DNA from: an uncultured Candidatus Saccharibacteria bacterium
Lineage (GTDB): Bacteria > Patescibacteriota > Minisyncoccia > Phycocordibacterales > Phycocordibacteraceae
Assembly (NCBI GenBank): GCA_964402535.1
Contig: CAYOCH010000001.1
Span: 8,286 to 72,285 of the forward strand
Length of the DNA stretch: 64,000 nucleotides
Direction: 5' to 3'
Below the pieces are notes generated by a model that was not told where the DNA came from, searched no databases, and saw nothing but the letters and a program-made list of their open reading frames with translations. The position numbers and the translations under genes are program-made. Positions 763 to 56,742 of the stretch are shown one piece after another. Position 1 is the stretch's first letter. Each line of letters starts with the position of its first letter.

Positions 763-2337
<1,575 letters not shown>

Positions 2338-3445: not shown

Positions 3446-4201
3446 CTAGTGTGCCTCGTGTGGATCCACGATCGCGAGCTTGATGAAGAACAAGGTCAAC
3501 ATCGCGAACACGAGCGCCTGGATCAGCCCGATGAACATCTCGAATCCCATCAGCGGCGCCGGGAGAACGTACGGTAAAAAGTAACCAGCGACAAGCACCA
3601 TCACTTCACCCGCAAAAATATTCCCGAAAAGACGGAATGAGAACGAGACGAGCCGGCCGAGGTTGCTGATGAGCTCGATGAGCCCGACCGCGAACCCGAC
3701 CGGCGACTTCAGGTTAACATACTTACCCGCATATTTGAAAAATCCGAGGAGCGCGATGCCGGTGACCTCGATCGTGAAGAAGGCGATGATCGCGAGCGCG
3801 AGGGTGAAGTTGAGGTCGGTCGTGGGCGCACGCAGCACGGGGAGGAACTCGGAGGCGTGCACGAGCCCGATCGAACCGATGCCCGGGAAGAACTCGATCT
3901 CGTTGATGAAGGCGATGAAGATGAAGATCGTCGCCACAAGCGGAAAGAAGCGCCGCGCGAGCTGCTCGCTCTCCAAGACCTCGGCCATATAGGCGATCGC
4001 GCCCTCGAAGGCCCACTCGACGCCCGCCTGGAGCTTACCGGGCACGACCACGAGCGAGCGGCGGAAGAGGTAGGCCCCGCCGATGAGGAGCGCCATCACG
4101 AGCCACGCCATGATGAGCGAATTGGTGATGGGGAAACCGAAAACGGAGCCCAATTGCTCCGCCGAGAGGACGACACTGATGCCCGAATGCATTATACCCA
4201 T
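3446..4201 (-). CDS. atpB: F0F1 ATP synthase a subunit
   Basis: 251 aa polytopic membrane protein with conserved Arg-containing helix (LVSFSFRLFGNIFAGE). Confidence 0.85.
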   Translation of the reverse strand: MGIMHSGISVVLSAEQLGSVFGFPITNSLIMAWLVMALLIGGAYLFRRSLVVVPGKLQAGVEWAFEGAIAYMAEVLESEQLARRFFPLVATIFIFIAFINEIEFFPGIGSIGLVHASEFLPVLRAPTTDLNFTLALAIIAFFTIEVTGIALLGFFKYAGKYVNLKSPVGFAVGLIELISNLGRLVSFSFRLFGNIFAGEVMVLVAGYFLPYVLPAPLMGFEMFIGLIQALVFAMLTLFFIKLAIVDPHEAH

Positions 4202-4978: not shown

Positions 4979-5052
4979 TGGTCGGGCCGCCGGGAATTGA
5001 ACCCGGTCTACACGCACCCGAAGCGTGCGTACTACCGGCATACTCCGGCCCG
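4979..5052 (-). tRNA. tRNA-Pro(CGG), CCA encoded
   Basis: Cloverleaf: acceptor CGGGCCG/CGGCCCG, anticodon loop UUCGGGU, T-loop TTCAATT. Confidence 0.75.
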
Positions 5053-5053
5053 G

Positions 5054-5127
5054 TGCGCTCTGCAGGGATCGAACCTGCGACCTTACGCGTGTGAAGCGTA
5101 CGCTCTAACCAACTGAGCTAAGAGCGC
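5054..5127 (-). tRNA. tRNA-Val(CAC)
   Basis: Acceptor GCGCTCT/AGAGCGC, D-arm GCTCAGTTGGTTAGAGC, anticodon loop TTCACAC, T-loop TTCGATC. Confidence 0.8.
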
Positions 5128-5156
5128 GCTCCTGCACGATAACAGATTTATCTTTG

Positions 5157-5227
5157 TCGGGCTACCGGGAATTGAACCCGGTCTACATCCACCCCATGGA
5201 TGCGTACTACCGGTATACTATAGCCCG
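5157..5227 (-). tRNA. tRNA-Pro(GGG)
   Basis: Acceptor CGGGCTA/TAGCCCG, anticodon stem CATCC/GGATG with loop ATGGGGT. Confidence 0.7.
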
Positions 5228-5272
5228 CGACGAGGTTGAGAATAACACATGTCGTGATAAAATCGCTCGCAC

Positions 5273-5345
5273 GGGCCATTAGCTCAGTTGGTAGAGCGCG
5301 TCATTCGCATTGACGAGGTCAGGAGTTCGACTCTCCTATGGTCCA
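5273..5345 (+). tRNA. tRNA-Ala(CGC)
   Basis: GGGCCAT..ATGGTCC acceptor with G3:U70, anticodon loop TTCGCAT. Confidence 0.8.
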
Positions 5346-5378
5346 CAAAGGGTTTGGTATACTTATCCATCATGAAAA

Positions 5379-5677
5379 TGCCTGGAGAAGGGATCCGACA
5401 GTATCTGAATCAGCAGGAGTCAAATGAAGGCGCCGAGGCGCGTTTAAAGACCGAAATATCAGAGTATGTTGCCGGCATTGACGCGAACGCCACAGTCGAA
5501 TTCGAGACGTACAAGTGGTCTCGCGAGGCCGAGGAGGGCGATGGGCTCAAGATGACCTTCAAGTACAACGGCCGCGAAGAGGTGTACCGCGACCAGGAGC
5601 TGAACGATGCGTCGTTTGATGCCGCAAAGGATGTGTTCGACCGGTTCTATCGCGCCGCCAAGAACTCCATCGCGTAG
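5379..5677 (+). CDS. Hypothetical small acidic protein
   Basis: About 100 aa ORF between two tRNA-Ala genes; start trimmed to downstream ATG outside the tRNA; no recognisable domain. Confidence 0.4.
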
Positions 5678-5714
5678 CGATTTCGGAAAAAATACGGTAC
5701 AAATAGCGAGTAAG

Positions 5715-5785
5715 GGGCCTATAGTTCAGCGGTAGAACGCGTCCATGGCATGGACGAGGTCGGGGTCCGACTCCCCGTAGGTCCA
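5715..5785 (+). tRNA. tRNA-Ala(GGC)
   Basis: Acceptor GGGCCTA/TAGGTCC with G3:U70, anticodon loop ATGGCAT. Confidence 0.75.
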
Positions 5786-8459: not shown

Positions 8460-9707
8460 TTATATCAGGCTGCGAGAGCGCGCTGCGCGGTGCTTCGCAA
8501 GAGAAAACCGGTGCGCCTCGGCGTTCGCAAGCACCGCATCTGCCTCGCTGATACCCGCCGCGCGGGCACCGATCACTTCGCGCGGTCGGTGCCGCTCGTC
8601 TTTGACGAGCGCAACCACCGGTATCTTCACGCCAGCGTCCGCGAGAGCTGCCTCTGCTGCCTTCTTTTGTGTCTTACCGCCGTCGACGACGATCGCCTGA
8701 GGGAACGGCCACTCCGGATGATTGAAGCGCCGTGACAGGATCTCTTTCAGCGATCCGACATCGTCGTTCTTCTTGATGCCACGGATACGGAACGTGCGGT
8801 ACTCGCTCTTCACCGGAGCGCCATCTGACACGACCGTCATCACGCCGATCGCATTCGTCCCCGCCAAGTGCGCCGTATCATAGGCTTCTATCCTGTATCC
8901 AAATCTGTCCGCGGTCGCGTACATATTTGGATGCAGGTTTTCGTCCTTGATGAGCGAGACGTCCTGGATATGATCGAGCGCGAAGAGCTCTCGGCGCGCC
9001 TCTGCCGCGTCCTCGAACCGCTCATCCTTGGCCGCCTCGCGCATCTCGCGCGTTAGCGCGACGCGCAGCTCCTTGCCGCGACCGCTCAAAAACAGCTTCA
9101 CCTTGAGGATCGTGCGGCGATAATGCTTTGCATCAATCTCTCGCGGGTACTGGCCAATCTGCGTATTAAACTCGATTTTGGCGCGGTGATGCTTGCTCGT
9201 GTGGCCGACCGGCTTCGGGGTATCGAAAAACGGGAAGATGCGGCGGATGAGCCGCAGCCCCTCGCGCAGCTGCGCGCCCGAAGGGAACGGTCCGTAGATC
9301 GACTCAAACCGGCTCCCGGCGGCGATCTTCTTTACAAAATCTATGTCCTTGCCGCGCACGGCGAGCACGCGCGCGATCGGCTCCTTGGTGATGATCGCGT
9401 AGAGAAAGCTTTTATCATCCTTGCCCTCGACGTTGGCCTTGGGCTTGTACTTCTTGATGAGCGCGGCCTCGCGCACCAAGGCCTCGAGCACGGTCGGGCA
9501 CGTCTCGTGCGCGACGCGGTCAGCGCGCGTCACCATGTCGACTATGCGCGGCCCGCGTGTCGCGATCAGGTCGTCGTCGAAATAGCTCCGCACGCGGTCG
9601 CGCAGGCTCGTCGCCTTGCCGACATAGAGCACCGCCCTCCCCTTCTTAAAGAGGTACACGCCCGGCACGTCCGGGAGGTCAGACTGTTTTAGGTCGCTTC
9701 TTTGCAT
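8460..9707 (-). CDS. uvrC: Excinuclease ABC subunit C, short form (GIY-YIG plus UvrBC-interaction plus endonuclease domain; C-terminal (HhH)2 apparently absent)
   Basis: N-terminal GIY-YIG (VPGVYLFKKGRAVLYVGKA), UVR motif, C-terminal EAYDTAHLAGT...IVVDGGK block homologous to the UvrC nuclease domain; only 415 aa. Confidence 0.8.
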   Translation of the reverse strand: MQRSDLKQSDLPDVPGVYLFKKGRAVLYVGKATSLRDRVRSYFDDDLIATRGPRIVDMVTRADRVAHETCPTVLEALVREAALIKKYKPKANVEGKDDKSFLYAIITKEPIARVLAVRGKDIDFVKKIAAGSRFESIYGPFPSGAQLREGLRLIRRIFPFFDTPKPVGHTSKHHRAKIEFNTQIGQYPREIDAKHYRRTILKVKLFLSGRGKELRVALTREMREAAKDERFEDAAEARRELFALDHIQDVSLIKDENLHPNMYATADRFGYRIEAYDTAHLAGTNAIGVMTVVSDGAPVKSEYRTFRIRGIKKNDDVGSLKEILSRRFNHPEWPFPQAIVVDGGKTQKKAAEAALADAGVKIPVVALVKDERHRPREVIGARAAGISEADAVLANAEAHRFSLAKHRAARSRSLI

Positions 9708-12366: not shown

Positions 12367-12680
12367 GGATATGGGAACTCCTGCCCGTGGCGGGACAGGT
12401 ACGGCTTGACTATACCATAACGAGTACTACAATTGAATTGAGCTTAGGCTCGGTTTTATTAGCTTAGTCCGGCCAATATGGCAGTACTCTTGCTAGAAAA
12501 ATTGAGCCCTGTTCTTCCAGCTGCATTTTGACTATCTGCATCGAATCCCTGAACAAGGTTCTTCCGATCCAGATCTAATTCCCGAGTCAATGACAACTTG
12601 CAGTTAGAATTAAGTTACGTCTTGTCATGACGTGACCGAAGTAAGAATCTCGGGTGTTCTTGCAGGACAGTGGGCTCAAT

Positions 12681-13544: not shown

Positions 13545-15587
<2,043 letters not shown>

Positions 15588-15592
15588 ATACG

Positions 15593-16843
15593 TTAGGCGT
15601 AGTAGGAACGGACAAAGTCTGCCCGATATTGTTCAAATCGTCCATCGATGATCGCCTGCCGCGCGCCAGCGACGAGGTCGAGGATGAAGCCGACGTTGTG
15701 CATCGAGGCGATAGCTGCGCCGAGCATCTCGCCCGAGCGCAGGAGGTGCGCGACATAGGCGCGAGAGAACTGCTCGGTGCCTGTTACAGCGAGCTCTGGG
15801 TCGAGCGGGCCGAAGTCTGTCCTATATTTTTCGTTCGTGAGACGGATGACGCCTTGTTTCGTATAGATCGAGCCGTGCCGGCCGAGCCGCGTCGCTGCGA
15901 CGCAGTCGAAGAGGTCCATGCCGTTCGCGATGCCCTCGAGGATATCGCCCGGCTCACCGATCCCGAGGAAGTGCCGCGGCAGCTCCTCGGGCAGTTCCCC
16001 CACGGCTGCCGAGAGCGCGCTCCGCATATCCTCCTTGCTGAAGGAGCCGCCGATGCCGATGCCGTCGAAGCCGAGTGAGGCGATCTCGCGAGCCGACTCG
16101 GCGCGCAGATCTTCGTGACGGCCGCCCTGCACGATGCCGAAGATCGCCTGCTTCTTGCTCGCGTCGATATTCTGCCGGTGCGCCGTAAGCGACCGCGCCG
16201 CCCAGCGATGTGTGCGTTCCATCGCCTCCTTCTGGTATTCATACGGCTCAGTCGGCGACGTGCATTCGTCGAAGGCGAAGAAGATGTCCGCGCCGAGTGC
16301 GTGCTGGATCTCGATCGTGCGCTCTGGCGTGAAGCGATGCAGCGAGCCGTCCAGGTGCGAGGTGAAGGAGACGCCCTCGTCGTCGATCACCGCGAGCTGG
16401 CCGTGCTGGCTCGCGACGCTCTCGTCGAAGTGCGCGAGCCCATGTCGGGACGTCGTACGTCCTACATCAGATGTAGGACGTACGACGTCCTCCACATTCG
16501 AGATCTTCGAGATCTTACGGCCGAAGGCCGCCCCGAGCGAGAAGACCTGAAAGCCGCCCGAGTCAGTGATCGTCGGCCCGCTCCAACCCATGAACGTGCC
16601 GAGCCCGCCAGCCTCTTGGACGATCTTCTCTCCCGGCTGCAGGTAGAGGTGATAGGTGTTCGCGAGGACGACCTCGGCGCCGAGCGCCTCGAGGGTCGAG
16701 GGCAGGATGCCTTTCACGTTCGCCTTCGTTCCCACCGGCGTGAAGGCGGGCGTGCGGATCGCCCCGTGAGGCGTCGTGAGGATGCCAACACGCGCGCGGC
16801 TCTTCAGCTCGCGTGATTCAATTGAGAATGAGATCGCGCTCAT
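15593..16843 (-). CDS. tgt: Queuine tRNA-ribosyltransferase (tRNA-guanine transglycosylase) with about 43-aa insertion
   Basis: TDSGGFQVFSLG, FDECT and Zn-site CxCxxC-like blocks conserved; 416 aa versus about 375 typical; extra segment after FSLG contains a perfect palindrome. Confidence 0.85.
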   Translation of the reverse strand: MSAISFSIESRELKSRARVGILTTPHGAIRTPAFTPVGTKANVKGILPSTLEALGAEVVLANTYHLYLQPGEKIVQEAGGLGTFMGWSGPTITDSGGFQVFSLGAAFGRKISKISNVEDVVRPTSDVGRTTSRHGLAHFDESVASQHGQLAVIDDEGVSFTSHLDGSLHRFTPERTIEIQHALGADIFFAFDECTSPTEPYEYQKEAMERTHRWAARSLTAHRQNIDASKKQAIFGIVQGGRHEDLRAESAREIASLGFDGIGIGGSFSKEDMRSALSAAVGELPEELPRHFLGIGEPGDILEGIANGMDLFDCVAATRLGRHGSIYTKQGVIRLTNEKYRTDFGPLDPELAVTGTEQFSRAYVAHLLRSGEMLGAAIASMHNVGFILDLVAGARQAIIDGRFEQYRADFVRSYYA

Positions 16844-34630: not shown

Positions 34631-35641
34631 TTATGCGTGACCAGACGCTGTCACCACCTGCTCGAGCTCGGCGGCGGAATTGGCGGCCATGAGCTTGGCG
34701 CGGAGGTCGGCGGCGCCGTCAAAGCCGGTGACGAATGCCTTGATGTGCTTCTTGAGTATCGAAAAGTTCTTCGGCGGCGCGAGCTTCTCAAATCCGTGCG
34801 CGAGTTCGACGAGCGCCATCAGCTTCTCTTGCAGTCCATGTTCGGGTTTCGTAAATCCATCATGCATGATGGATTTACGAAACCCATCATTGCCGCGCTC
34901 CGCAAATACCCACGGATTGCCAAACATGCCGCGGCCGATCATGACGCCGTCACAACCGGTCTCTGCGGCGAGCCGCTCCCCTTCTGCGATGCTCTGCACA
35001 TCGCCATTCCCTATGAGGAGCACATCGGGCGCGATCCGGTCGCGGAGCTCTTTAGCCTTCTTCATCCGCTCCCAATCGGCGGGGACGAGCGAGAGCTCCT
35101 TGCGCGTGCGCAGGTGGAGCGTGAGCGCCGCCGGTCGTGCCGAGAGGATCGGCGTGAGCCACTCTAGAAGCGTCTCTTTGTTATAGCCGATGCGCGTCTT
35201 CACCGAGACCGGCAGCCCTGCAGACTTCGCCGCCTCGATGAGTTCGACCGCTAAGGTCGGCGACTTGATGAGCGCTGCGCCGGCACCCTGCTTCTCGATG
35301 CTCCTATCCGGGCAGCCCATGTTGAGGTCGACGCCGTCGAAGCCAAGCTCGGCCACGACCTTGGCGCCATACGCGATCATCTCGGGTTTCGCCGAGAAGA
35401 TCTGTGCGACGATCGGATGCTCAGCGCTCGTGAACCGCAGATCGCGCATAAGCGGATTCTCTGCGTCCGGCATCTTAGCGATCTCGCGGGTGTGAAGGAG
35501 CCCGTCGGCCGAGACGAACTCGGTCCACGTGACGTCCGGCTTGCCATGCTTCGCAACGAGCGCGCGGAAGGCAGCGTCGGTGACATCCGCCATCGGCGCC
35601 ATCGCGAAGAACGGTCGCGAGAGCTTATTCCAGAATGACAT
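34631..35641 (-). CDS. dus: tRNA-dihydrouridine synthase
   Basis: TIM-barrel Dus motifs (APMADVTD, NMGCP, VKTRIG, conserved catalytic Cys); 336 aa. Confidence 0.85.
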   Translation of the reverse strand: MSFWNKLSRPFFAMAPMADVTDAAFRALVAKHGKPDVTWTEFVSADGLLHTREIAKMPDAENPLMRDLRFTSAEHPIVAQIFSAKPEMIAYGAKVVAELGFDGVDLNMGCPDRSIEKQGAGAALIKSPTLAVELIEAAKSAGLPVSVKTRIGYNKETLLEWLTPILSARPAALTLHLRTRKELSLVPADWERMKKAKELRDRIAPDVLLIGNGDVQSIAEGERLAAETGCDGVMIGRGMFGNPWVFAERGNDGFRKSIMHDGFTKPEHGLQEKLMALVELAHGFEKLAPPKNFSILKKHIKAFVTGFDGAADLRAKLMAANSAAELEQVVTASGHA

Positions 35642-35667: not shown

Positions 35668-36534
35668 TTACCGCTTTGTGCCGTCCGACTTTCGCTTCAC
35701 GTAGACTTTACCGTCGAAGCGCAGGTCGACGTAGACGAGCGAGCCGTCGCCAAGGTTCATGCTGCCCTTGCCCGAGGTGAGCGCGGTAAACGCCGCTTGC
35801 TCGTGACCGAGCACATAGGTCACGCGGGTACCACTCGCGAGATAGTCGTCGATCTCGTCGCCGCGGAGCGCGACCCTGGTCACCTCCGTGCCGAAGGTCG
35901 CGAGCTGCCGCGCGAAGTCGAACGTGCTCGGCAGCTCGTCTGCGCGCGCGATAGTCGCTCGGAGAGGTTCAAGCACATCGCCAATCAGGGGCGCGTAGAC
36001 CGCGAACGGGTTGATCGTCTCGGTCGTCGTCGCAGCAGGTGCGAAGACGAATCCGTTCGCGTCAAAAACATAGCAGTTCTCGACTCCCGATGGCTTGGAG
36101 CTTGCCCCGTTGGAAATCAGATTTTCAACGGGGCACCAGCGTGCGACCGCGACGCGGTCGTTCACCTTGATCGAGAGGCCCGTGAGCCCGTTGTGGAATA
36201 TCGAAATGGAGGCGATCTCCGGATGCGCCGCCATGATGTTCGCGCGGATCTGCCCGTCCGGATAGAAGAACATCGAGTCGCGCGGCACGAGCCCCAGATA
36301 GCTGCCCTGCATCGCCGAGGTCGCAACGTCTGAGAGCGACTGGTCAGCGCCGTAGATCGTGACCTCGCTGATGCGCACGGCGCTCTGGTTCAAGCCGTAG
36401 AGCAGCCCCGCGAGCGCGAGGATTGCGAGAACGACAAACGTGATCAAGACGCGGCGTCGGCGCTGTCGGCGGCGTTCTGCAAGCCGCGCGCTACCGTGCG
36501 GTACCGAGGACAGTCTTGCCGACATACGGCACAA
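35668..36534 (-). CDS. FtsQ/DivIB-like POTRA-domain protein
   Basis: Arg-rich cytoplasmic N-terminus, single TM, then VRISEVTIYGADQSLSDVATSA POTRA-like segment. Confidence 0.45.
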   Translation of the reverse strand: MCRMSARLSSVPHGSARLAERRRQRRRRVLITFVVLAILALAGLLYGLNQSAVRISEVTIYGADQSLSDVATSAMQGSYLGLVPRDSMFFYPDGQIRANIMAAHPEIASISIFHNGLTGLSIKVNDRVAVARWCPVENLISNGASSKPSGVENCYVFDANGFVFAPAATTTETINPFAVYAPLIGDVLEPLRATIARADELPSTFDFARQLATFGTEVTRVALRGDEIDDYLASGTRVTYVLGHEQAAFTALTSGKGSMNLGDGSLVYVDLRFDGKVYVKRKSDGTKR

Positions 36535-39452: not shown

Positions 39453-41864
39453 GTGCGCGTTATGAGTGAGGGGGTGAGCTCCAAACTACTCATCGTCGAA
39501 TCACCGACCAAGGCGCGCACGATCGGTCACTACCTGGGCAAGGACTACACGGTCCTCGCTTCAGTCGGCCACGTGCGCGATTTGCCCAAGACGAACAAGG
39601 ACGCCGTCGACATCGAGGGCGGCTTCGTGCCGCGCTACGTGATCCCCGCCGAGAAGCGTGAGGTGATCGAGAAGATCGAGCGCGCCGCCAAGAAGGCCGA
39701 CGAGATCTATCTCGCGACCGACCCCGACCGCGAGGGCGAGGCGATCGCGTGGCATATCAAGGAGGTCGCCGGACTGAAGCAGCCTAAGCGCGTCGCCTTT
39801 CACGAGATCACGAAGGAGGCGATCGAGGAGGCGCTCAAGGAGCCGCGCGCGATCGACGAGCACCTGCGCCAGGCGCAGGAAGCCCGCCGCGTGCTCGACC
39901 GCATCGTGGGCTACGACCTCTCCGGCCTCATCTGGAAGAAGGTGCGCTACGGCCTCTCTGCCGGACGCGTGCAGTCACCTGCGCTCCGGATCCTCGCGGA
40001 GCGCGAACGCGAGATCACTTCGTTCATCCCGGTCACGTACTTCGTGCTCTCTGCGCTCTTCACCTCGAAGAAGGGTGAGATCGCCACGACCTGCACCGAG
40101 CAGCCCGCGACGCGCGAGGAGGCCGAGCGGATCGTGCGCGAGGGCAAGAGCGCGTCGTGGCAGGTCGCCGACGTGAGCGAGAAGGCCGAGGAGCGCAACC
40201 CGCGTCCACCCTTCACCACCTCGACGCTGCAGCAGGCAGCCTCGACGCGGCTCGGCTTCGCACCTTCGCGCACGATGCGCGCCGCGCAGAAGCTCTACGA
40301 GGCGGGTCACATCACCTACATGCGTACCGACTCGGTGAACCTCGCGAAGGAGGCGGTCGCCAAGCTCGCCGGCGTCGTCGAGAAACAATTCGGCAAGGAG
40401 TACCTGCAGGTGCGCGCCTACAAGACGACGAGCAAGAACGCCCAGGAGGCGCACGAGGCGATCCGCCCCACCGACCCTTCAAACACGCACGCAGGCGCGA
40501 CGCCTGACGAGACGCATCTCTATGAGCTTATCCGCACGCGCACGCTCGCCTCGCAGATGGCGGCCGCCAAAGTGATGCGCACGTCGATTTCAATACAAGC
40601 AGATAAAATGATTCCGCTCTTCGTCGCGAACGGCTCGCGGGTCATCTTCCCGGGCTGGCTCGCGCTTGACGTGAAGGCGCGCGGCGAGGACGTCGAGCTG
40701 CCGCACGTCGCGAAGGGCGATGCCGTGTCGCTCCTCTCGCTTACCAGTGAAGAGAAGCAGACCGAGCCGCCGAACCGCTACACCGAGGCCGGCCTCATCA
40801 AGGAGCTCGAGAAGCGCGGCATCGGCCGCCCCTCGACCTACGCCTCGATCATGAAGACGATCCAGGATCGCGGCTATGTAGAGAAACTCGGCAGGGCGCT
40901 TAAGCCGACCGCGACCGGCATGGTCGTCTCCGGCTGGCTCGAGGAGCACTTCCCCGAGTATGTGAGCGACACGTTCACCGCCGAGATGGAGGATGAGCTC
41001 GACGAGATCGCCCGCGGAGAGCGCGGCTACACCGAGACGCTCTCGGCCTTTTATGGACCGTTCGAAAAGGCGGTGCACGCCAAGGACAAGCTGCCCAAAG
41101 CGACCTCGCTCGGCAACGTAGACGCCAAGTTCCCCTGCCCGATCTGCGGCGGCCCGATGGAGTTGAAGCTCGGCCGCGGCGGCGTCTTCATGTCCTGCAA
41201 GCGCTACCCGGACTGCGTCGGCGCCCGCACCGAGGACGGCGCTGAGCTCAAAGGTGACGAGCCGATCGGCAGCCACCCCGAGACCGGCGCACCTATATAT
41301 GTGAGGAGCGGCCGCTACGGGCCGTATGTCGAGATGCCCGAGCCCGAACCAAGGTCAGACCTTAAGAATTCGGATCCAAGGTCTGACCTTAGTTCGGGTA
41401 CGAAGAAACGCGGTAAAGGGCGACCGAAGGTCGCTGCCAAGCGCGCGAGCATCCCTGCCGGCACTAAGCCCGAGGACGTGACGCTCGCCGACGCCGTGCG
41501 CTACCTCTCGCTCCCGCGCGAGCTCGGGACGCATCCCTCGACCGGCAAGCCGGTCATCGCCTCCACCGGCCGATTCGGCCCCTACGTCGGGAGCAACGGC
41601 GAGTTCCGCTCACTGAAGAAGCAGGACCCCTACACCGTGACGCTCGACGAGGCGCTCGCGCTCCTTGCGCAGCCCAAGCGGCCGCCCAAGGGCGTCGAGA
41701 TCGTGCGCGAGATCGGCGCGCACCCAAAGTCTGGAAAGCAGCTCGTCCTCTACAAGTCGAAGCAAGGTCTCTTCCTCAAGAAGGGCTTGCGCCGCATCTA
41801 CCTGCCTTCGAATACGAGCGCCGACGCGCTCACGCCCGCAGAAGCGGCCACGTATCTCGCATAA
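39453..41864 (+). CDS. topA: DNA topoisomerase I
   Basis: TOPRIM (LLIVESPTKARTI), catalytic Tyr region, C-terminal Zn-ribbon (CPICGGPMELK...CKRYPDC) and basic tail. Confidence 0.95.
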   Translation: MRVMSEGVSSKLLIVESPTKARTIGHYLGKDYTVLASVGHVRDLPKTNKDAVDIEGGFVPRYVIPAEKREVIEKIERAAKKADEIYLATDPDREGEAIAWHIKEVAGLKQPKRVAFHEITKEAIEEALKEPRAIDEHLRQAQEARRVLDRIVGYDLSGLIWKKVRYGLSAGRVQSPALRILAEREREITSFIPVTYFVLSALFTSKKGEIATTCTEQPATREEAERIVREGKSASWQVADVSEKAEERNPRPPFTTSTLQQAASTRLGFAPSRTMRAAQKLYEAGHITYMRTDSVNLAKEAVAKLAGVVEKQFGKEYLQVRAYKTTSKNAQEAHEAIRPTDPSNTHAGATPDETHLYELIRTRTLASQMAAAKVMRTSISIQADKMIPLFVANGSRVIFPGWLALDVKARGEDVELPHVAKGDAVSLLSLTSEEKQTEPPNRYTEAGLIKELEKRGIGRPSTYASIMKTIQDRGYVEKLGRALKPTATGMVVSGWLEEHFPEYVSDTFTAEMEDELDEIARGERGYTETLSAFYGPFEKAVHAKDKLPKATSLGNVDAKFPCPICGGPMELKLGRGGVFMSCKRYPDCVGARTEDGAELKGDEPIGSHPETGAPIYVRSGRYGPYVEMPEPEPRSDLKNSDPRSDLSSGTKKRGKGRPKVAAKRASIPAGTKPEDVTLADAVRYLSLPRELGTHPSTGKPVIASTGRFGPYVGSNGEFRSLKKQDPYTVTLDEALALLAQPKRPPKGVEIVREIGAHPKSGKQLVLYKSKQGLFLKKGLRRIYLPSNTSADALTPAEAATYLA

Positions 41865-45288: not shown

Positions 45289-46182
45289 ATGACAATACAA
45301 TTACTCGCCATCGCCGGCCCGACCGCCTCGGGCAAATCCTCTCGCGCCGTCGAAGAGGCGCTCACGCGCAACGGCGAGATCATCTCGGTCGACTCGCGTC
45401 AGGTCTACCGCGGGCTCGACATCGGCACCGAGAAGGTTACGGCATCTGAGATGCGCGGTGTGCCGCACCACCTGCTGGATATACGCGAGCCGGAGGAGAC
45501 ATATTCCGCTGGCGAGTTCGTCGCGGATGCGACAACGGCCATTAACGATATCGTCGCTCGCGGCAAGCTGCCGATCCTTGTGGGCGGCTCGCACTTCTAC
45601 TTCGACGCGCTCCTTCAGGGGCTGCCCGACAGCGCCGACCCTGACCCGACGCTCCGCGCAGAGCTCGAGCGGCTCTCTGACGAGGAACTCTGTGCTCGCG
45701 TGCGCGCTGCCGATCCGCGTCGCGCTGCCGAGCTCGACCCCAAGAACCGCCGCCGCTTGATCCGTGCACTCGAGATCATCACCGCCCGCGGCTCCGTCCC
45801 GGAGCGGCGTTCGTTATCTTGTACGACCGTTGAAGATAACGAACACCGGCGACCATTTCAAGCCGAGTGGATCGAGATAAATCCGGATCGGGATGAGCTG
45901 CGGGCGCGGATCGACGCTCGGCTCAAGAGCGCGTTCGAGCGCGGCCTGATCGATGAGGTGCGGCGGGTCCGCGAACGTGTGGGCGACGCGCGGATCAACG
46001 AGCTCGGGCTCGAGTATCGCGTCGTGGGAGAGTTCTTGCGCGACGAGCGCAGTGAGGCATCACTCCTCCCTGCTCTCTCCGCCAAGCTCTGGCAATATGC
46101 CCGCCGGCAGAAGGCCTGGCTGCGCAAGCTCCGCGACGAGAACGTTATTGCGGGAGCGCCGTCGCACCCGGACAGAAGCTGA
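45289..46182 (+). CDS. miaA: tRNA dimethylallyltransferase
   Basis: P-loop IAGPTASGKS, DSRQVYRGLDIGT, and typical MiaA remainder. Confidence 0.85.
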   Translation: MTIQLLAIAGPTASGKSSRAVEEALTRNGEIISVDSRQVYRGLDIGTEKVTASEMRGVPHHLLDIREPEETYSAGEFVADATTAINDIVARGKLPILVGGSHFYFDALLQGLPDSADPDPTLRAELERLSDEELCARVRAADPRRAAELDPKNRRRLIRALEIITARGSVPERRSLSCTTVEDNEHRRPFQAEWIEINPDRDELRARIDARLKSAFERGLIDEVRRVRERVGDARINELGLEYRVVGEFLRDERSEASLLPALSAKLWQYARRQKAWLRKLRDENVIAGAPSHPDRS

Positions 46183-54553: not shown

Positions 54554-54855
54554 GCAAGCAGACCGACCGCGCCGCAGAGATCGTCGCGCACGAGGCGGCA
54601 GAATTTATCGCCCGCGAGGCAGGCACCGAGTCGCTCATCACCGTGATTCGTGCGCAAAGCGTCGCACACGGCGACCGGATGCTCGTGTTCGTGAGCGTCT
54701 TCCCGGCTGACAAGACGCACGCCGCGCTCGCCTTTCTCGACCGGCAGCGTGAAGCATTTTCTGATTATCTGAAAGAGCACATCCGTATGCGCTTACCTCG
54801 CGTCGAGTTCTTGCTCGAGAACGGCGAACATTCAGGAGGCCCGGGCGGGAATTGA
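54550..54855 (+). CDS. rbfA: Ribosome-binding factor A
   Basis: ATGA overlap with infB stop; KH-like fold sequence ITVIRAQSVAHGDRMLVFVSV; canonical infB-rbfA order. Confidence 0.75.
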   Translation: MSKQTDRAAEIVAHEAAEFIAREAGTESLITVIRAQSVAHGDRMLVFVSVFPADKTHAALAFLDRQREAFSDYLKEHIRMRLPRVEFLLENGEHSGGPGGN

Positions 54856-54908
54856 ACCCGCGCATCGCGGTTTTGCAGACCGCTGTGTTACCACTTCACC
54901 ACCGGGCC
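54837..54908 (-). tRNA. tRNA-Cys(GCA)
   Basis: Acceptor GGCCCGG, anticodon loop CTGCAAA, T-loop TTCAATT, U73 discriminator. Confidence 0.75.
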
Positions 54909-54950
54909 ATGTGTACGAGAATAACAGAGAAGATAGTATCATCCAAAGAC

Positions 54951-55039
54951 GCCGAGGTGATGGAATGGTAGACATAGGGGACTTAAAATCCCCAGAGGAC
55001 ATAAACACCCTCATGAGAGTTCGAGTCTCTCCCTCGGCA
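54951..55039 (+). tRNA. tRNA-Leu(TAA) with unusually long variable arm
   Basis: Acceptor GCCGAGG/CCTCGGC, anticodon loop CTTAAAA, variable region about 21 nt, T-loop TTCGAGT. Confidence 0.65.
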
Positions 55040-55040
55040 C

Positions 55041-55850
55041 ATGACGACGCGGACGAAACGCATAGGGGTCTTCGATTCCGGCTTCGGCGGGCTGCACGTC
55101 CTGCGCTCGATCGTCCGCGAGCTGCCCGACTATGAATACGTCTACTTAGGCGACACCGCCCGCGCACCCTACGGCGACCGGCCGCAGGAGACGATATATG
55201 CGTATACCAAACAGGCGGTAGACTTTCTCTTCTCGCACGGGTGCGGCCTCGTGGTGATCGCCTGCAATACGGCCTCGGCCGACGCGCTGCGCAAGATTCA
55301 AGACGAGTACGGTGCAAAGAAGAAGGTGCTCGGCGTCCTGATCCCTGCAGCTGAAGAGGCGGTCGAGATGACCGCGAACCGCCGCGTCGGCGTGATCGCA
55401 ACGCACAGCACAGTCGAGTCGGGCAAGTTCGTCCGCGAACTCGCCAAGCTCGACGAAGGCGTCGCGGTCTATCAGCAAGCGTGCCCGCTCTTGGTGCCGC
55501 TCGTCGAGGCCGGCGAGCACGACACGCCCGAGATGACGACGATCCTCGAACGCTACCTCGAGCCGCTCAAATCGAGAGACATAGACACGCTCATCCTCGG
55601 CTGCACGCACTACGGGATCCTCGAAGAGAAGATCCGTGCGGCTATCGGGCCCCAGGTCGCGATCGTCTCTGAGGCGCAGGTCGTGCCCAAGAAGCTCGCT
55701 GACTATCTCTCTCACCACAGAGAGATCGAAGAGACGCTCAGCACGACACCCGCCGTGCATTTCTATTCGACTGACCGCACTGACAAGTTCCAGACGCTCG
55801 GCAGCAAGCTCTTCGGCCGACCGATCGAGGTCGAACAGGCTGACCTATAA
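55041..55850 (+). CDS. murI: Glutamate racemase
   Basis: VFDSGFGGL, two catalytic Cys (IACNTAS and GCTHYG). Confidence 0.85.
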   Translation: MTTRTKRIGVFDSGFGGLHVLRSIVRELPDYEYVYLGDTARAPYGDRPQETIYAYTKQAVDFLFSHGCGLVVIACNTASADALRKIQDEYGAKKKVLGVLIPAAEEAVEMTANRRVGVIATHSTVESGKFVRELAKLDEGVAVYQQACPLLVPLVEAGEHDTPEMTTILERYLEPLKSRDIDTLILGCTHYGILEEKIRAAIGPQVAIVSEAQVVPKKLADYLSHHREIEETLSTTPAVHFYSTDRTDKFQTLGSKLFGRPIEVEQADL

Positions 55851-55863
55851 ATCGAACGATTTG

Positions 55864-55936
55864 TGCTCCCACCAGGGCTCGAACCTGGGACCCACTGCTT
55901 AAGAGGCAGTTGCTCTACCAACTGAGCTATAGGAGC
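55864..55936 (-). tRNA. tRNA-Lys(CTT)
   Basis: Acceptor GCTCCTA/TGGGAGC, anticodon loop CTCTTAA, T-loop TTCGAGC. Confidence 0.75.
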
Positions 55937-56028
55937 TGTATAGCGACAGTATACTAGTCGCCTGGTTGTTTCAACTGTGACCTGTGCATAAATGGTAGAC
56001 GTACTCGGTCTTAGGCTATGCTTTCTGA

Positions 56029-56670
56029 ATGGGAAGACATGCAAACCACTTCGACCTGTCATGGACTCACGATCTCGCGTATGTTGTGGGACTCTTAACA
56101 AGCGACGGCAATCTGTCTCCCGATGGTAGACACATTAATCTTACCTCTCGCGACAAGGAACTTGTTGAATATGCTCGCACGATTCTGGGTCTTACAAACA
56201 AGATCGGCAAGAAGGGTCGAGGGGGTTCGTTAACCAAAGACTATTATGTGCTGCAGTTCGGCAGCATACAATTCTATTCCTTTTTGCTTAAGATTGGGCT
56301 GACACCTGCGAAGTCAAAGACGCTAGGGCCGCTTGCGATCCCTCAACATTATTTCTGCGATTTCGTTCGCGGCTGCATCGACGGAGATGGAAACATCAGT
56401 GAGGCCTTGCACCCTGAGAGTTCGCTTATCCAGCTCCGTTTGCGCATTTCATCGGCAAGCCCCGCGTTCTTACGATGGTTGTTGACTCAACTGCGGCGGC
56501 AGTGCGAGGTGCCTGGGGGCTGGATCTATTTAGACAAGAAGAAATCTGTGAGTATGTTATGTTTTGGCAAGAGAGATTCAATCGATATATTACGAAGGGC
56601 GTACGAATATAAATCAGCGTATTTTCTGAGACGAAAATATGCGATTGCTAGGAAATATCTGGGCGAGTAG
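56029..56670 (+). CDS. LAGLIDADG family homing endonuclease (two-motif, single-chain type), free-standing
   Basis: Motif 1 YVVGLLTSDGNL and motif 2 FVRGCIDGDGNI about 100 aa apart; about 47% GC versus about 65% genome. Confidence 0.7.
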   Translation: MGRHANHFDLSWTHDLAYVVGLLTSDGNLSPDGRHINLTSRDKELVEYARTILGLTNKIGKKGRGGSLTKDYYVLQFGSIQFYSFLLKIGLTPAKSKTLGPLAIPQHYFCDFVRGCIDGDGNISEALHPESSLIQLRLRISSASPAFLRWLLTQLRRQCEVPGGWIYLDKKKSVSMLCFGKRDSIDILRRAYEYKSAYFLRRKYAIARKYLGE

Positions 56671-56742
56671 CCGAATTGGTACAGGCGCATGGCTTAGGAC
56701 CATGTCTCGCAAGAGGTGAGGGTTCGAGTCCCTCCTCGCCCA
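56661..56742 (+). tRNA. tRNA-Leu(TAG)
   Basis: Type II tRNA: acceptor GGGCGAG/CTCGCCC, anticodon loop CTTAGGA, long variable arm, T-loop TTCGAGT. Confidence 0.75.

Follow-up and report, generated by a model that had tools for sequence, protein, structure and literature searches.

The 64,000-nucleotide (nt) stretch of contig CAYOCH010000001.1 analyzed here (the window) carries a tgt gene on its minus strand, at positions 15593 to 16843, and a perfect palindrome of 43 bp within that gene is the subject of this report. The gene encodes a tRNA-guanine transglycosylase of 416 amino acids (aa) (Pfam TGT, E = 9e-127). The palindrome (positions 16448 to 16490) is composed of a left arm, GGACGTCGTACGTCCTACATC (16448 to 16468), a single central A (16469), which corresponds to the third base of a Ser codon, TCT, on the coding strand, and a right arm, GATGTAGGACGTACGACGTCC (16470 to 16490), which is the exact reverse complement of the left arm. 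A repeat finder and an independent script agreed on this 21+1+21 structure, with 21 of 21 arm positions complementary. The arms hold the hexamers GACGTC (16449 to 16454 and 16484 to 16489) and CGTACG (16454 to 16459 and 16479 to 16484). The tgt open reading frame (ORF) runs through the palindrome, where it encodes ...RKISKISNVEDVVRPTSDVGRTTSRHG... (in a wider stretch, ...FGRKISKISNVEDVVRPTSDVGRTTSRHGLAHFDE...), and tryptic peptides predicted to cover the element in Tgt include PTSDVGR and TTSR/HGLAHFDESVASQHGQLAVIDDEGVSFTSHLDGSLHR. A preliminary description of this DNA had reported the palindrome with its two hexamers, its position in frame in tgt, and its peptide; direct reading of the sequence confirmed each of these points.

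The preliminary description had also held that such a palindrome is not expected by chance, and our controls agree. In 100 dinucleotide shuffles, the arm of the window copy had zero further matches at three or fewer mismatches. Across 20 simulations of the window with a second-order Markov model, the best hairpin score was 16 or less, compared with 21 for the tgt palindrome. The fold z-score of the palindrome was -6.4 as RNA and -7.5 as DNA, and the hairpin was predicted to form at -46 kcal/mol as RNA. A search of the whole window against Rfam at gathering thresholds returned tRNAs only. Near the element, there were just sub-threshold matches to miRNA-like hairpins, which we discarded as the chance similarity that any long hairpin gives. 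We also rejected the idea that GACGTC and CGTACG are meaningful restriction sites, given that other alleles of the module that contains them (GGACATCGGAAGTCC, GGACATATCATGTCC, and GGGTTTCGTAAACCC) lack these sites.

The palindrome is the central part of a longer element (approximately 16439 to 16500), whose extent was taken from the center-aligned consensus of 75 copies described below. Its organization is that of a doublet of repetitive extragenic palindromic (REP) sequences, resembling the REP doublets forming hairpins that are known as REPINs. On the plus strand, the layout is CCCATGTCG / GGACGTcgtACGTCC / TACATC a GATGTA / GGACGTacgACGTCC / TCCACATTCG. The element is about 55 to 61 bp long; the window copy starts with CCCATGTCG and ends with ACATTCG, its outer arms are slightly degenerate, and extra outer pairs (ATGT/ACAT) appear on folding. 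The right REP body, GGACGT-acg-ACGTCC (16476 to 16490, plus strand), has a 6-bp stem and a 3-nt loop, sizes that fit published REP ranges, and is preceded by a GTAG tag (16473 to 16476). The left REP body is an inverted copy (16448 to 16462, minus strand), reading GGACGT-cgt-ACGTCC on the plus strand, with its tag appearing as CTAC (16462 to 16465). Between them, the two GTAG tails make up a central mini-hairpin, TACATC-a-GATGTA (16463 to 16475), which encodes T-S-D-V. The pattern ACATCnGATGT occurs 3 times in the window (0.03 expected) and was invariant across 58 family copies.

The element belongs to a dispersed, multicopy family. The core pattern GTCCNACATCNGATGTNGGAC was found in at least 120 metagenome contigs, largely from groundwater and sediment, and had 0 matches in viral contigs, which gave no indication of a phage origin. 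The family counts given here and below (i.e., 75 copies, 58 doublets, and the host clusters) refer to distinct copies among the matches listed. The 75 center-aligned copies share one architecture, with nothing conserved beyond approximately 30 nt on either side of the center. The consensus is xATGTn-M-nACATCnGATGTn-M'-nACATxxx, with the middle reading nACATC-n-GATGTn. The module M is a 15-nt hairpin, most commonly GGACGT-CGT-ACGTCC, for which the alleles GGACATCGGAAGTCC, GGACATATCATGTCC, GGACCTCGTAGGTCC, GGACTTCGTAAGTCC, and GGGTTTCGTAAACCC also occur, and M' mirrors each of them exactly. Arm lengths range from 17 to 27 nt across the family. No flanking direct repeats were detected around the doublets in the 75 copies. 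Single contigs elsewhere hold 2 to 7 copies (L029, L169, and L179; L numbers designate loci other than the window).

The doublets lie almost exclusively within genes. Of 58 distinct doublets, 57 are located within ORFs that are 150 aa or longer. The element leaves the ORF uninterrupted in the window genes tgt, dus, and topA, as it does across the host gene clusters, of which there are at least 34. These clusters are unrelated to one another and are mostly of housekeeping function. Hosts recognized by Pfam comprise transketolase/ribulose-phosphate epimerase, GluRS, an S-adenosylmethionine methyltransferase, Pol III delta', DnaE, TsaD, ScpB, Fmt, a ZIP transporter, UvrB, RecJ, PheT, a Mur ligase, TatD, ArgRS, a TraG-like ATPase, an epimerase, and Tgt. 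The reading frame is strongly biased as well, with 57 of the 58 doublets read as ..D[VI]x[RS]PTSDVG[RLH]xxS.. (..DVVRPTSDVGRTTS..). A perfect consensus element contains a stop codon in both other frames; the PTSDVG frame is also stopped wherever the left outer arm reads ATGTAG, which it never does in the genic copies. The frame bias can therefore be attributed to survivorship. A further observation concerns the DnaE gene of L139 (470 to 5038), which contains an intein carrying a LAGLIDADG domain as well as a REP doublet (peptide IGCPTSDVGHPM), i.e., two kinds of in-frame selfish insertion in one essential gene.

The symmetry of the doublets is nearly complete. Over 21 nt, 37 of the 58 show no mismatch and 17 show a single one. 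When the 21 pairs of the long hairpin were tabulated over the 58 copies, 98.4% of the cells were Watson-Crick pairs, a level that no shuffled or slid control approached. Double-sided changes were seen at ten of the 21 pairs (165 cells), and one-sided or wobble cells numbered 0. The loop bases of the two mini-hairpins are exact mirrors too, beyond any requirement of an RNA fold. In the alternative clover fold (three 6-bp hairpins), 96.6% of positions are paired across the family. Nearly all mismatches fall at columns 24/36, i.e., at the variable third base of the tag, which is the wobble base of the Pro and Val codons. Selection on RNA structure was not favored as an explanation, since wobble pairs are missing and the loop bases are mirrored; on the evidence of the alignment, the symmetry is a property of the DNA. 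We read the pattern as subfamilies spreading as whole mirror-image units, with decay starting at the least-constrained position. Two copies at different positions in the L169 contig have the same asymmetric base at the columns 24/36 pair, and the complete duplex therefore appears to have been copied.

In Tgt, the contribution of the element was separated from that of a clade-wide extension. Homologues of the window Tgt with 76 to 80% identity (401 to 435 aa) were found in metagenome-assembled genomes of Kaiserbacteria, Paceibacterota, and Minisyncoccota. The window protein aligns to the Zymomonas mobilis TGT save for residues 106 to 153, which stand opposite just Zymomonas residues 113 to 116. 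The preliminary description had put the palindrome inside an insertion of approximately 43 aa; the size was right, but the extra segment (approximately 44 aa relative to the solved Tgt) is common to all close homologues of 401 to 435 aa and is, by its distribution, a clade-wide feature separate from the element. We compared the stretch from GGFQVFSL to FTSH across 80 species-representative genomes. It measures 57 to 58 aa in most close relatives and 65 to 70 aa in most palindrome carriers, including 68 aa in the window protein. Judged from these lengths, the net gain due to the element is only about 8 to 11 aa, within a clade-wide hypervariable acidic loop. The alignment of orthologues that had been proposed for delimiting the insertion thus supplied its net size, and the loop was too variable for its junctions to be defined. 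A structural model, proposed for the question of a surface loop, gave residues 96 to 150 a predicted local distance difference test (pLDDT) score of <50 and no regular structure (AlphaFold, 26 sequences), which is consistent with, and short of proof of, a flexible surface segment.

Relatives carry different but equally symmetric palindromes in their tgt genes. These occur at the same two sites, with different sequences and still-perfect arms. The L002 element, GACGTAGTACGTCCTACATCaGATGTAGGACGTACTACGTC, differs from the window copy by one symmetric double change; in L004, site 1 holds GGACATCGGAAGTCCCACATCt... and site 2 holds GGGTTTCGTAAACCCAACATCt...; and further tgt palindromes are present in L005, L011, L027, and L029. 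Between the window and L002, the elements are identical at 40 of 42 nt, and the whole tgt genes are 72.5% identical. The site-1 element of the window tgt also matches the site-2 element of the L011 tgt, GluRS copies in L096 and L106, and others. In uvrB, a recurrent insertion site just after VRPVS-E holds different palindromic elements in L004, L005, L011, L029, L031, and L046, and the corresponding site of the window uvrB (13545 to 15587), after ...VRAVS-E, is empty. Filled genes exceed empty ones by 24 to 36 nt in tgt, which is shorter than the element, and by 27 to 60 nt in uvrB. The same sequence can also occupy different genes of different genomes, as in the window dus and the L031 uvrB. 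The distribution is patchy: in a rough neighbor-joining tree, which was star-like, element carriers were scattered among noncarriers. Different alleles at the same loop could result from repeated insertion into permissive sites, targeting of preexisting REPs, or turnover of an ancient insertion.

Almost the same element is present in P0078, a Kaiserbacteria Tgt, in the same codons and with one symmetric double change relative to the window. The exact P0078 protein was found in 49 blocks of the collection index, and 28 contigs from NCBI, JGI, ENA, and Logan were recovered; every member of this cluster that spans the site carries the element. Separately, of three variable residues that distinguish P0241 and P0243 from P0078, one lies in the element (SDVGRTT versus SDVRRTT). 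This change is one-sided and breaks the palindrome, evidence that mutations without a compensating partner do appear in populations.

The window contains further elements of this kind. Strong hairpins number 12, compared with approximately 1 expected, and several of them lie within conserved genes. Apart from the tgt type itself, there are three clear relatives (749 to 788, 34844 to 34885, and 41343 to 41398) and additional imperfect hairpins. At 749 to 788, two 15-nt REP singlets, GGACATCcGATGTCC and GGACATCgGATGTCC, stand astride the stop codon of atpA (763 to 2337, minus strand). One of them encodes the last residues of AtpA, and the second unit, TAGGACATCGGATGTCCTAAC, matches the hairpin that flanks a transposase gene in L142. 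In dus (34631 to 35641, minus strand), a perfect 21+0+21 palindrome, GGGTTTCGTAAATCCATCATG/CATGATGGATTTACGAAACCC (34844 to 34885), is in frame and encodes the peptide GFRKSIMHDGFTKP. Its sequence is approximately that of the L031 uvrB element (12561 to 12601), with a variant at tgt site 2 of L004, and its reading frame differs from that of the L031 and L004 copies. In topA (39453 to 41864, plus strand), a type-B doublet, AAGGTCaGACCTT...AAGGTCtGACCTT (41343 to 41398), is in frame and encodes the peptide PRSDLKNSDPRSDL; it has 21-nt arms with one mismatch and a 14-nt spacer containing GAATTC. Within topoisomerase I, this doublet falls in the linker that joins the Zn ribbon to the C-terminal repeats, and its architecture recurs at tgt site 2 of L002 and L018, in uvrA of L029, and in one L031 gene.

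One host cluster was not of the housekeeping type and links the family to a transposase. It comprises a protein of approximately 218 aa that matches the Pfam family Y1_Tnp (IS200-like, PF01797) above the cutoff, with a visible HUH motif (NHFHL). Using tblastn, Y1 homologues were found in 16 hairpin-bearing loci: 14 in contigs selected by the pattern (0.81 Mb) versus 2 in tgt-anchored loci (1.33 Mb). The latter two, L029 and L034, are palindrome rich or have a hairpin next to the gene. For most of the 17 Y1 matches, the hairpin type of the locus is located 7 to 72 nt upstream of the gene, just past its stop codon, or internally at nt 138 to 196. Hairpins are present at both gene ends in L151, L134, L142, L156, L029, and L125. 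The hairpin type around the Y1 genes covaries with the locus: TGTCCAACATCnGATGTTGGACA, which has an extended central mini-hairpin, is found in L151, L134, L168, L115, and L129 (in L162, inside the gene only); GGACATCgGATGTCC, the type at the atpA end of the window, in L142; TGTCCGACATCgGATGTCGGACA in L156; and GGATGTCcGACATCC in L029. At the Y1 gene of L034, the hairpin is GAAGTCnGACTTC, known from the topA element as its type-B module; it occurs a short distance upstream of the gene and also within it.

A connection to the window element itself is provided by L125 (Candidatus Kaiserbacteria RIFCSPLOWO2_02_FULL_55_12). Upstream of its Y1 gene is CCATGTAGGACGTcgtACGTCCTACATGG, downstream is ATGTAGGACGTcgtACGTCCTACAT, and the gene holds an internal copy as well; the hairpin corresponds to exactly one half of the window tgt element, and a full doublet lies in a housekeeping gene 4 kb away. 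ATGTAGGACGTcgtACGTCCTACAT, the unit of the right REP body of the window element, likewise flanks the Y1 gene of L195. The sole NCBIfam match of the Y1 proteins was to the REP-associated tyrosine transposase (RAYT) model NF047646 (E = 1e-11 to 2e-5); as far as such matches indicate, they are RAYT relatives and not certified RAYTs. We found approximately 1,400 Y1 homologues, mostly annotated as "hypothetical" or "putative transposase," in Kaiserbacteria and Parcubacteria. A sequence search with the Y1 protein against solved structures yielded no match, and neither tnpB nor an accessory gene was observed beside the Y1 genes. In-frame copies of their own hairpin were observed inside the Y1 genes of L151 (919 to 941), L134 (5080 to 5102), L162 (7324 to 7348), L125 (approximately 3793 to 3827), and L034. 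These sit between the first beta-strand and the HUH motif and encode peptides such as VQHPMLD and SRTTNVGRTTSYIRE; each could have arisen by self-insertion at a permissive loop or could serve in regulation.

Together, these observations make it very probable, in our assessment, that the tgt palindrome is the core of a miniature nonautonomous REP-type element, a member of a family dispersed among Kaiserbacteria-like Patescibacteria that is probably copied or moved by a Y1 enzyme. The preliminary description had likened it to an in-frame palindromic insertion of the Rickettsia palindromic element (RPE) kind; the general idea is supported and can be sharpened to a tail-to-tail dimer of GTAG-type REPs. 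Its two GTAG-tagged hairpins (GTAG-GACGT-acg-ACGTCC) are inverted relative to each other, with their tails meeting at one central base. Single-stranded, whether as DNA or as RNA, the unit (approximately 55 to 61 nt) can fold as one long hairpin or as a clover, i.e., three 6-bp mini-hairpins closed by ATGT/ACAT. A Y1/HUH transposase of approximately 220 aa, belonging to the IS200/IS605-RAYT superfamily and with its own gene bracketed by single hairpins, would make or move the copies. The physical association and the analogy with known systems indicate that this enzyme probably mobilizes the doublets, and we infer a single-stranded hairpin intermediate and neutrality of the inserted peptide. The absence of flanking direct repeats fits single-strand cutting and rejoining without target duplications. 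With almost no intergenic space in these genomes, insertions would land in genes, and those that persist would be the ones in permissive surface loops, in the stop-free frame, with a hydrophilic peptide rich in Pro, Gly, Ser, Thr, and Asp (..D-V-V-R-P-T-S-D-V-G-R-T-T-S..). In this tgt, 8 to 11 residues would have been added to an expanded, poorly ordered, clade-specific segment and translated with the protein. If this explanation is true, a Y1 gene flanked by GTAGGACGTnnnACGTCCTAC is expected in the source genome.

A bolder proposal is possible, which we advance only tentatively. The family would be a REPIN/Y1 system of Kaiserbacteria-like Patescibacteria that dwells in coding sequences, with a stop-free and loop-friendly frame, repeated recolonization of the same loops in dozens of essential proteins (among them Tgt, UvrA/B, DnaE, aminoacyl-tRNA synthetases [aaRSs], TopA, and Dus), hairpin-templated mirror copying, and possibly a regulatory in-frame copy in the transposase gene. 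If such a coding-sequence habitat were real, no smaller translated mobile elements would be known, and they would generate variation in protein loops throughout this lineage in bacteria of the candidate phyla radiation (CPR).

Several results weigh against a mobile REP-type element. The tag is not strictly GTAG: across 58 copies, the G, the T, and the final G are invariant and the third base is A, G, T, or C, giving GTNG. The exact tgt palindrome sequence occurs once in the window, and a tblastn search of the 64 kb detected no Y1 gene there, so that the link to a mobilizer is made at the level of the family, on other contigs. The upstream and downstream hairpins of L125 have the same loop orientation, an arrangement that looks more like the termini, left (LE) and right (RE), of IS200-type insertion sequences (ISs) than the inverted REPs of classical REPtrons. 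The Y1 proteins scored 24 to 45 bits against NF047646, whose cutoff is 80. With respect to current mobility, the near-identical P0078 strain cluster showed no insertion/excision polymorphism and one single-nucleotide polymorphism inside the element. Among the tgt and uvrB orthologues, no clean empty site, fixed unit length, or target motif emerged at the insertion junctions, because the loops are too variable and the gain in tgt is shorter than the element.

Among the other explanations, the best surviving one is a selected functional module, i.e., a hairpin acting in mRNA or DNA (in stability, pausing, or protein binding, or as an uptake or recombination signal) or a PTSDVG-type peptide recruited in many proteins; no result calls for it, and we regard it as unlikely. 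The occurrence of 57 of 58 doublets in the PTSDVG frame would suit such a module, but survivorship through the stop codons of the other frames suffices for that bias. The greater conservation of the element than of its surroundings (40 of 42 nt versus 72.5% for the gene, window versus L002) would be just as likely after a recent insertion. At -46 kcal/mol as RNA, the hairpin is highly stable, but G·U pairs are not tolerated, contrary to what selection on RNA pairing would produce, and no Rfam family matched. The same loops are occupied repeatedly, yet the host proteins have no function in common, the element is missing from most orthologues, and the segment is modeled as disordered.

Less probable still is a local de novo origin, in which template switching during replication (a quasipalindrome or templated insertion) generated the palindrome in a tolerant loop with no mobile family involved. 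Such events could produce exact Watson-Crick arms in one step without wobble intermediates, as well as the nesting of palindromes seen here and the different, still-perfect palindromes found in the same loop across species. A palindrome-favoring bias is also hinted at by the Tgt motif TPAFVPVGTKAGV, a perfect palindrome with 15- to 17-nt arms in three species whose wobble bases covary. Local invention cannot, however, yield the same 19- to 21-nt arms in unrelated genes and genomes. The conserved outer arms and the GTNG tag define a sequence family, the asymmetric mismatch shared by the L169 copies implies copying of a whole duplex, and the hairpins bracket Y1 transposase genes. Template switching may act as a secondary process that keeps the arms symmetric. 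In the 5' part of tgt, the conserved Tgt motif TPAFVPVGTKAGVKG has a perfect palindrome with 15- to 17-nt arms as its coding sequence in L019 and L020 (10091 to 10128 in each) and in L026 (1947 to 1986). Its wobble bases vary by species yet stay complementary, and the window arms are only 7 nt long; chance helped by a "sense-antisense" peptide, or a palindrome-favoring mutational bias, may account for it.

That the palindrome is a foldback or chimeric join created by an assembler or by multiple displacement amplification, the artifact that the preliminary description had allowed for, is scarcely credible: a minimum k-mer size of 21 nt is in common use, NCBI records the exact window protein from a single contig, and foldback contigs do occur in these data, but the tgt frame is kept with its ORF intact, P0078 has a near-identical element in the same codons in all spanning members of 28 contigs from four sources, arm lengths of 17 to 27 nt and not only 21 are found in the family, and doublets identical to that of the window, or nearly so, are found within other genes in many assemblies that were produced independently and by different assemblers. 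The foldback contig in question, L001 (ENA ERZ27293368 k141_507250), is a giant inverted duplicate in which tgt-uvrB-uvrA-uvrC-ddl is mirrored. It was left out of the analyses as an assembler foldback artifact unrelated to the small palindromes.

A mobile element of REP type invites comparison with known systems, of which the REP/REPIN-RAYT systems are the closest. REPINs fold as hairpins or as clovers, the latter proposed to be recognized by the transposase, show compensatory changes, and are linked to RAYTs (Bertels and Rainey 2011, PMC3116915). Intragenic REPs are known from Opitutus terrae, Rickettsia conorii, Thauera, and Xanthomonas; more than half of the documented ones are dimers, and intragenic REP dimers encode 20 to 30 aa in uvrA, uvrB, dnaE, and aaRS genes (Di Nocera et al. 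2013, PMC3733652). In the same study, dimers with 1- to 2-bp spacers were described in O. terrae, and the Rickettsia RPE-4/6 were equated with CGTC-type REPs (PMC3733652). The window element shares with these systems the short GTAG-tagged hairpin (GTNG across the family) and the two inverted copies that can form a long hairpin or a clover; with GTAG inside, it is a "TT" dimer in the nomenclature of PMC3733652. Also shared are the symmetric sides with compensatory-looking differences, the dispersal, across contigs, as a multicopy family with subfamilies, and the Y1/HUH gene bracketed by the same hairpins (those of L125 and L195 carry the window unit). The element fits the documented picture of intragenic REPs closely, down to the kinds of host gene.

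The differences from REP/REPIN-RAYT systems are also clear. The hosts are Patescibacteria, and whereas classical REPs are mainly extragenic, nearly all doublets here (57 of 58) are intragenic and in one frame. The doublets thus depart from the extragenic character of REPs; singlets of the family do lie outside genes, at the 3' end of atpA and around the Y1 genes. The elements are extremely compact, with the tails forming the central hairpin around one unpaired base. In addition, the Y1 proteins fall below the NCBIfam cutoff for RAYTs, many of their genes hold an internal copy of the hairpin, and the flanking hairpins of L125 are apparently direct, as in IS200.

Like RPEs, the elements are in-frame palindromic repeats in conserved genes that are predicted to add loop peptides to many unrelated proteins with a patchy distribution. 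Classical RPE-1 is about 100 to 150 bp long and encodes about 35 to 50 aa, and it is not known to have an associated transposase. The present elements measure 55 to 61 bp, encode about 14 to 20 aa, carry a GTAG tag, are associated with a Y1 gene, and occur in another phylum. The length, the phylum, and the tag differ from descriptions of both RPE-1 and the CGTC-type RPE-4/6, and we treat RPEs as an analogue of the element and not as its family. With the IS200/IS605 family, the similarities are the Y1 HUH transposase (PF01797), the hairpins at both gene ends, the lack of a flanking direct repeat, and the existence of small, palindromic, nonautonomous relatives (palindrome-associated transposable elements [PATEs]). 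In contrast, the nonautonomous copies here are symmetric doublets of one hairpin instead of LE+RE pairs, and no tnpB or accessory gene was noted alongside the Y1 genes.

A literature search covering CPR/Patescibacteria found no description of these elements and no text match for the peptide PTSDVG. What appears to be new is the lineage, the near-exclusive occurrence of intragenic doublets in a single frame, the compactness, and the largely unannotated Y1 family with its own in-frame hairpin. With moderate probability, work at genome scale would give grounds for naming the element a distinct variant. A perfect 43-bp palindrome in an essential enzyme gene thus represents real biology rather than misassembly, which bears on the quality control and annotation of CPR genomes. 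It points to a large and apparently undescribed REP/Y1-transposase family in Patescibacteria that resides almost wholly inside housekeeping genes. The elements could serve as strain-typing markers, and their recurrent insertion into loops confuses alignments and phylogenies of CPR marker proteins. As a natural model of compact size, they would also suit work on hairpin-directed single-strand transposition and on the tolerance of proteins to inserted peptides.

Beside the element lies a tandem 9-mer, which the preliminary description had listed together with the palindrome. It is indeed present, as two copies of TCGAGATCT at 16498 to 16506 and 16507 to 16515, reading K-I-S-K-I-S on the coding strand (AAGATCTCG AAGATCTCG), directly upstream of the left outer arm of the element. 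It is less remarkable than the palindrome and falls outside the conserved element: TCGAGATCT occurs 3 times in the window (1.7 expected), perfect two-copy tandems of period 9 number five in the window with this pair included, and the position showed no conservation across element copies. Relative to the L002 tgt, the pair corresponds to 9 additional nt in the window, where orthologues read K(T)ISKF(T)K. In sequence terms, it looks like an ordinary slippage microduplication in an indel-tolerant loop, although it may be tied to the insertion event. A target-site duplication was rejected on the grounds that both copies lie on the same side, that no flank is conserved in the 75 copies, and that four other period-9 tandems exist; furthermore, IS200-type chemistry produces no target-site duplication.

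Additional observations were made on tgt and on the rest of the window. The Tgt of this clade lacks the CxCxxC zinc-binding cysteines of the solved TGT (Zymomonas residues 316 to 325, DSECHCAVCQKW, versus DPELAVTGTEQF in the window). The corresponding position (approximately 15770 to 15800; Tgt residues approximately 348 to 358) coincides with tgt site 2, which bears REP doublets in other species (e.g., PLSECMGFVNPTSDVGFTKPHTSEF in L004). Imperfect in-gene hairpins, with arms of 16 to 22 nt and 1 to 3 mismatches, are found at 8892 to 8937 (uvrC), 36103 to 36135 (the ORF at 35668 to 36534), and 45805 to 45848 (miaA), possibly as decayed remnants of this REP type or of others. The window also contains clusters of tRNA genes, with seven at 4982 to 5785 on both strands and more at approximately 54.8 to 56.7 kb (54837 to 56742).

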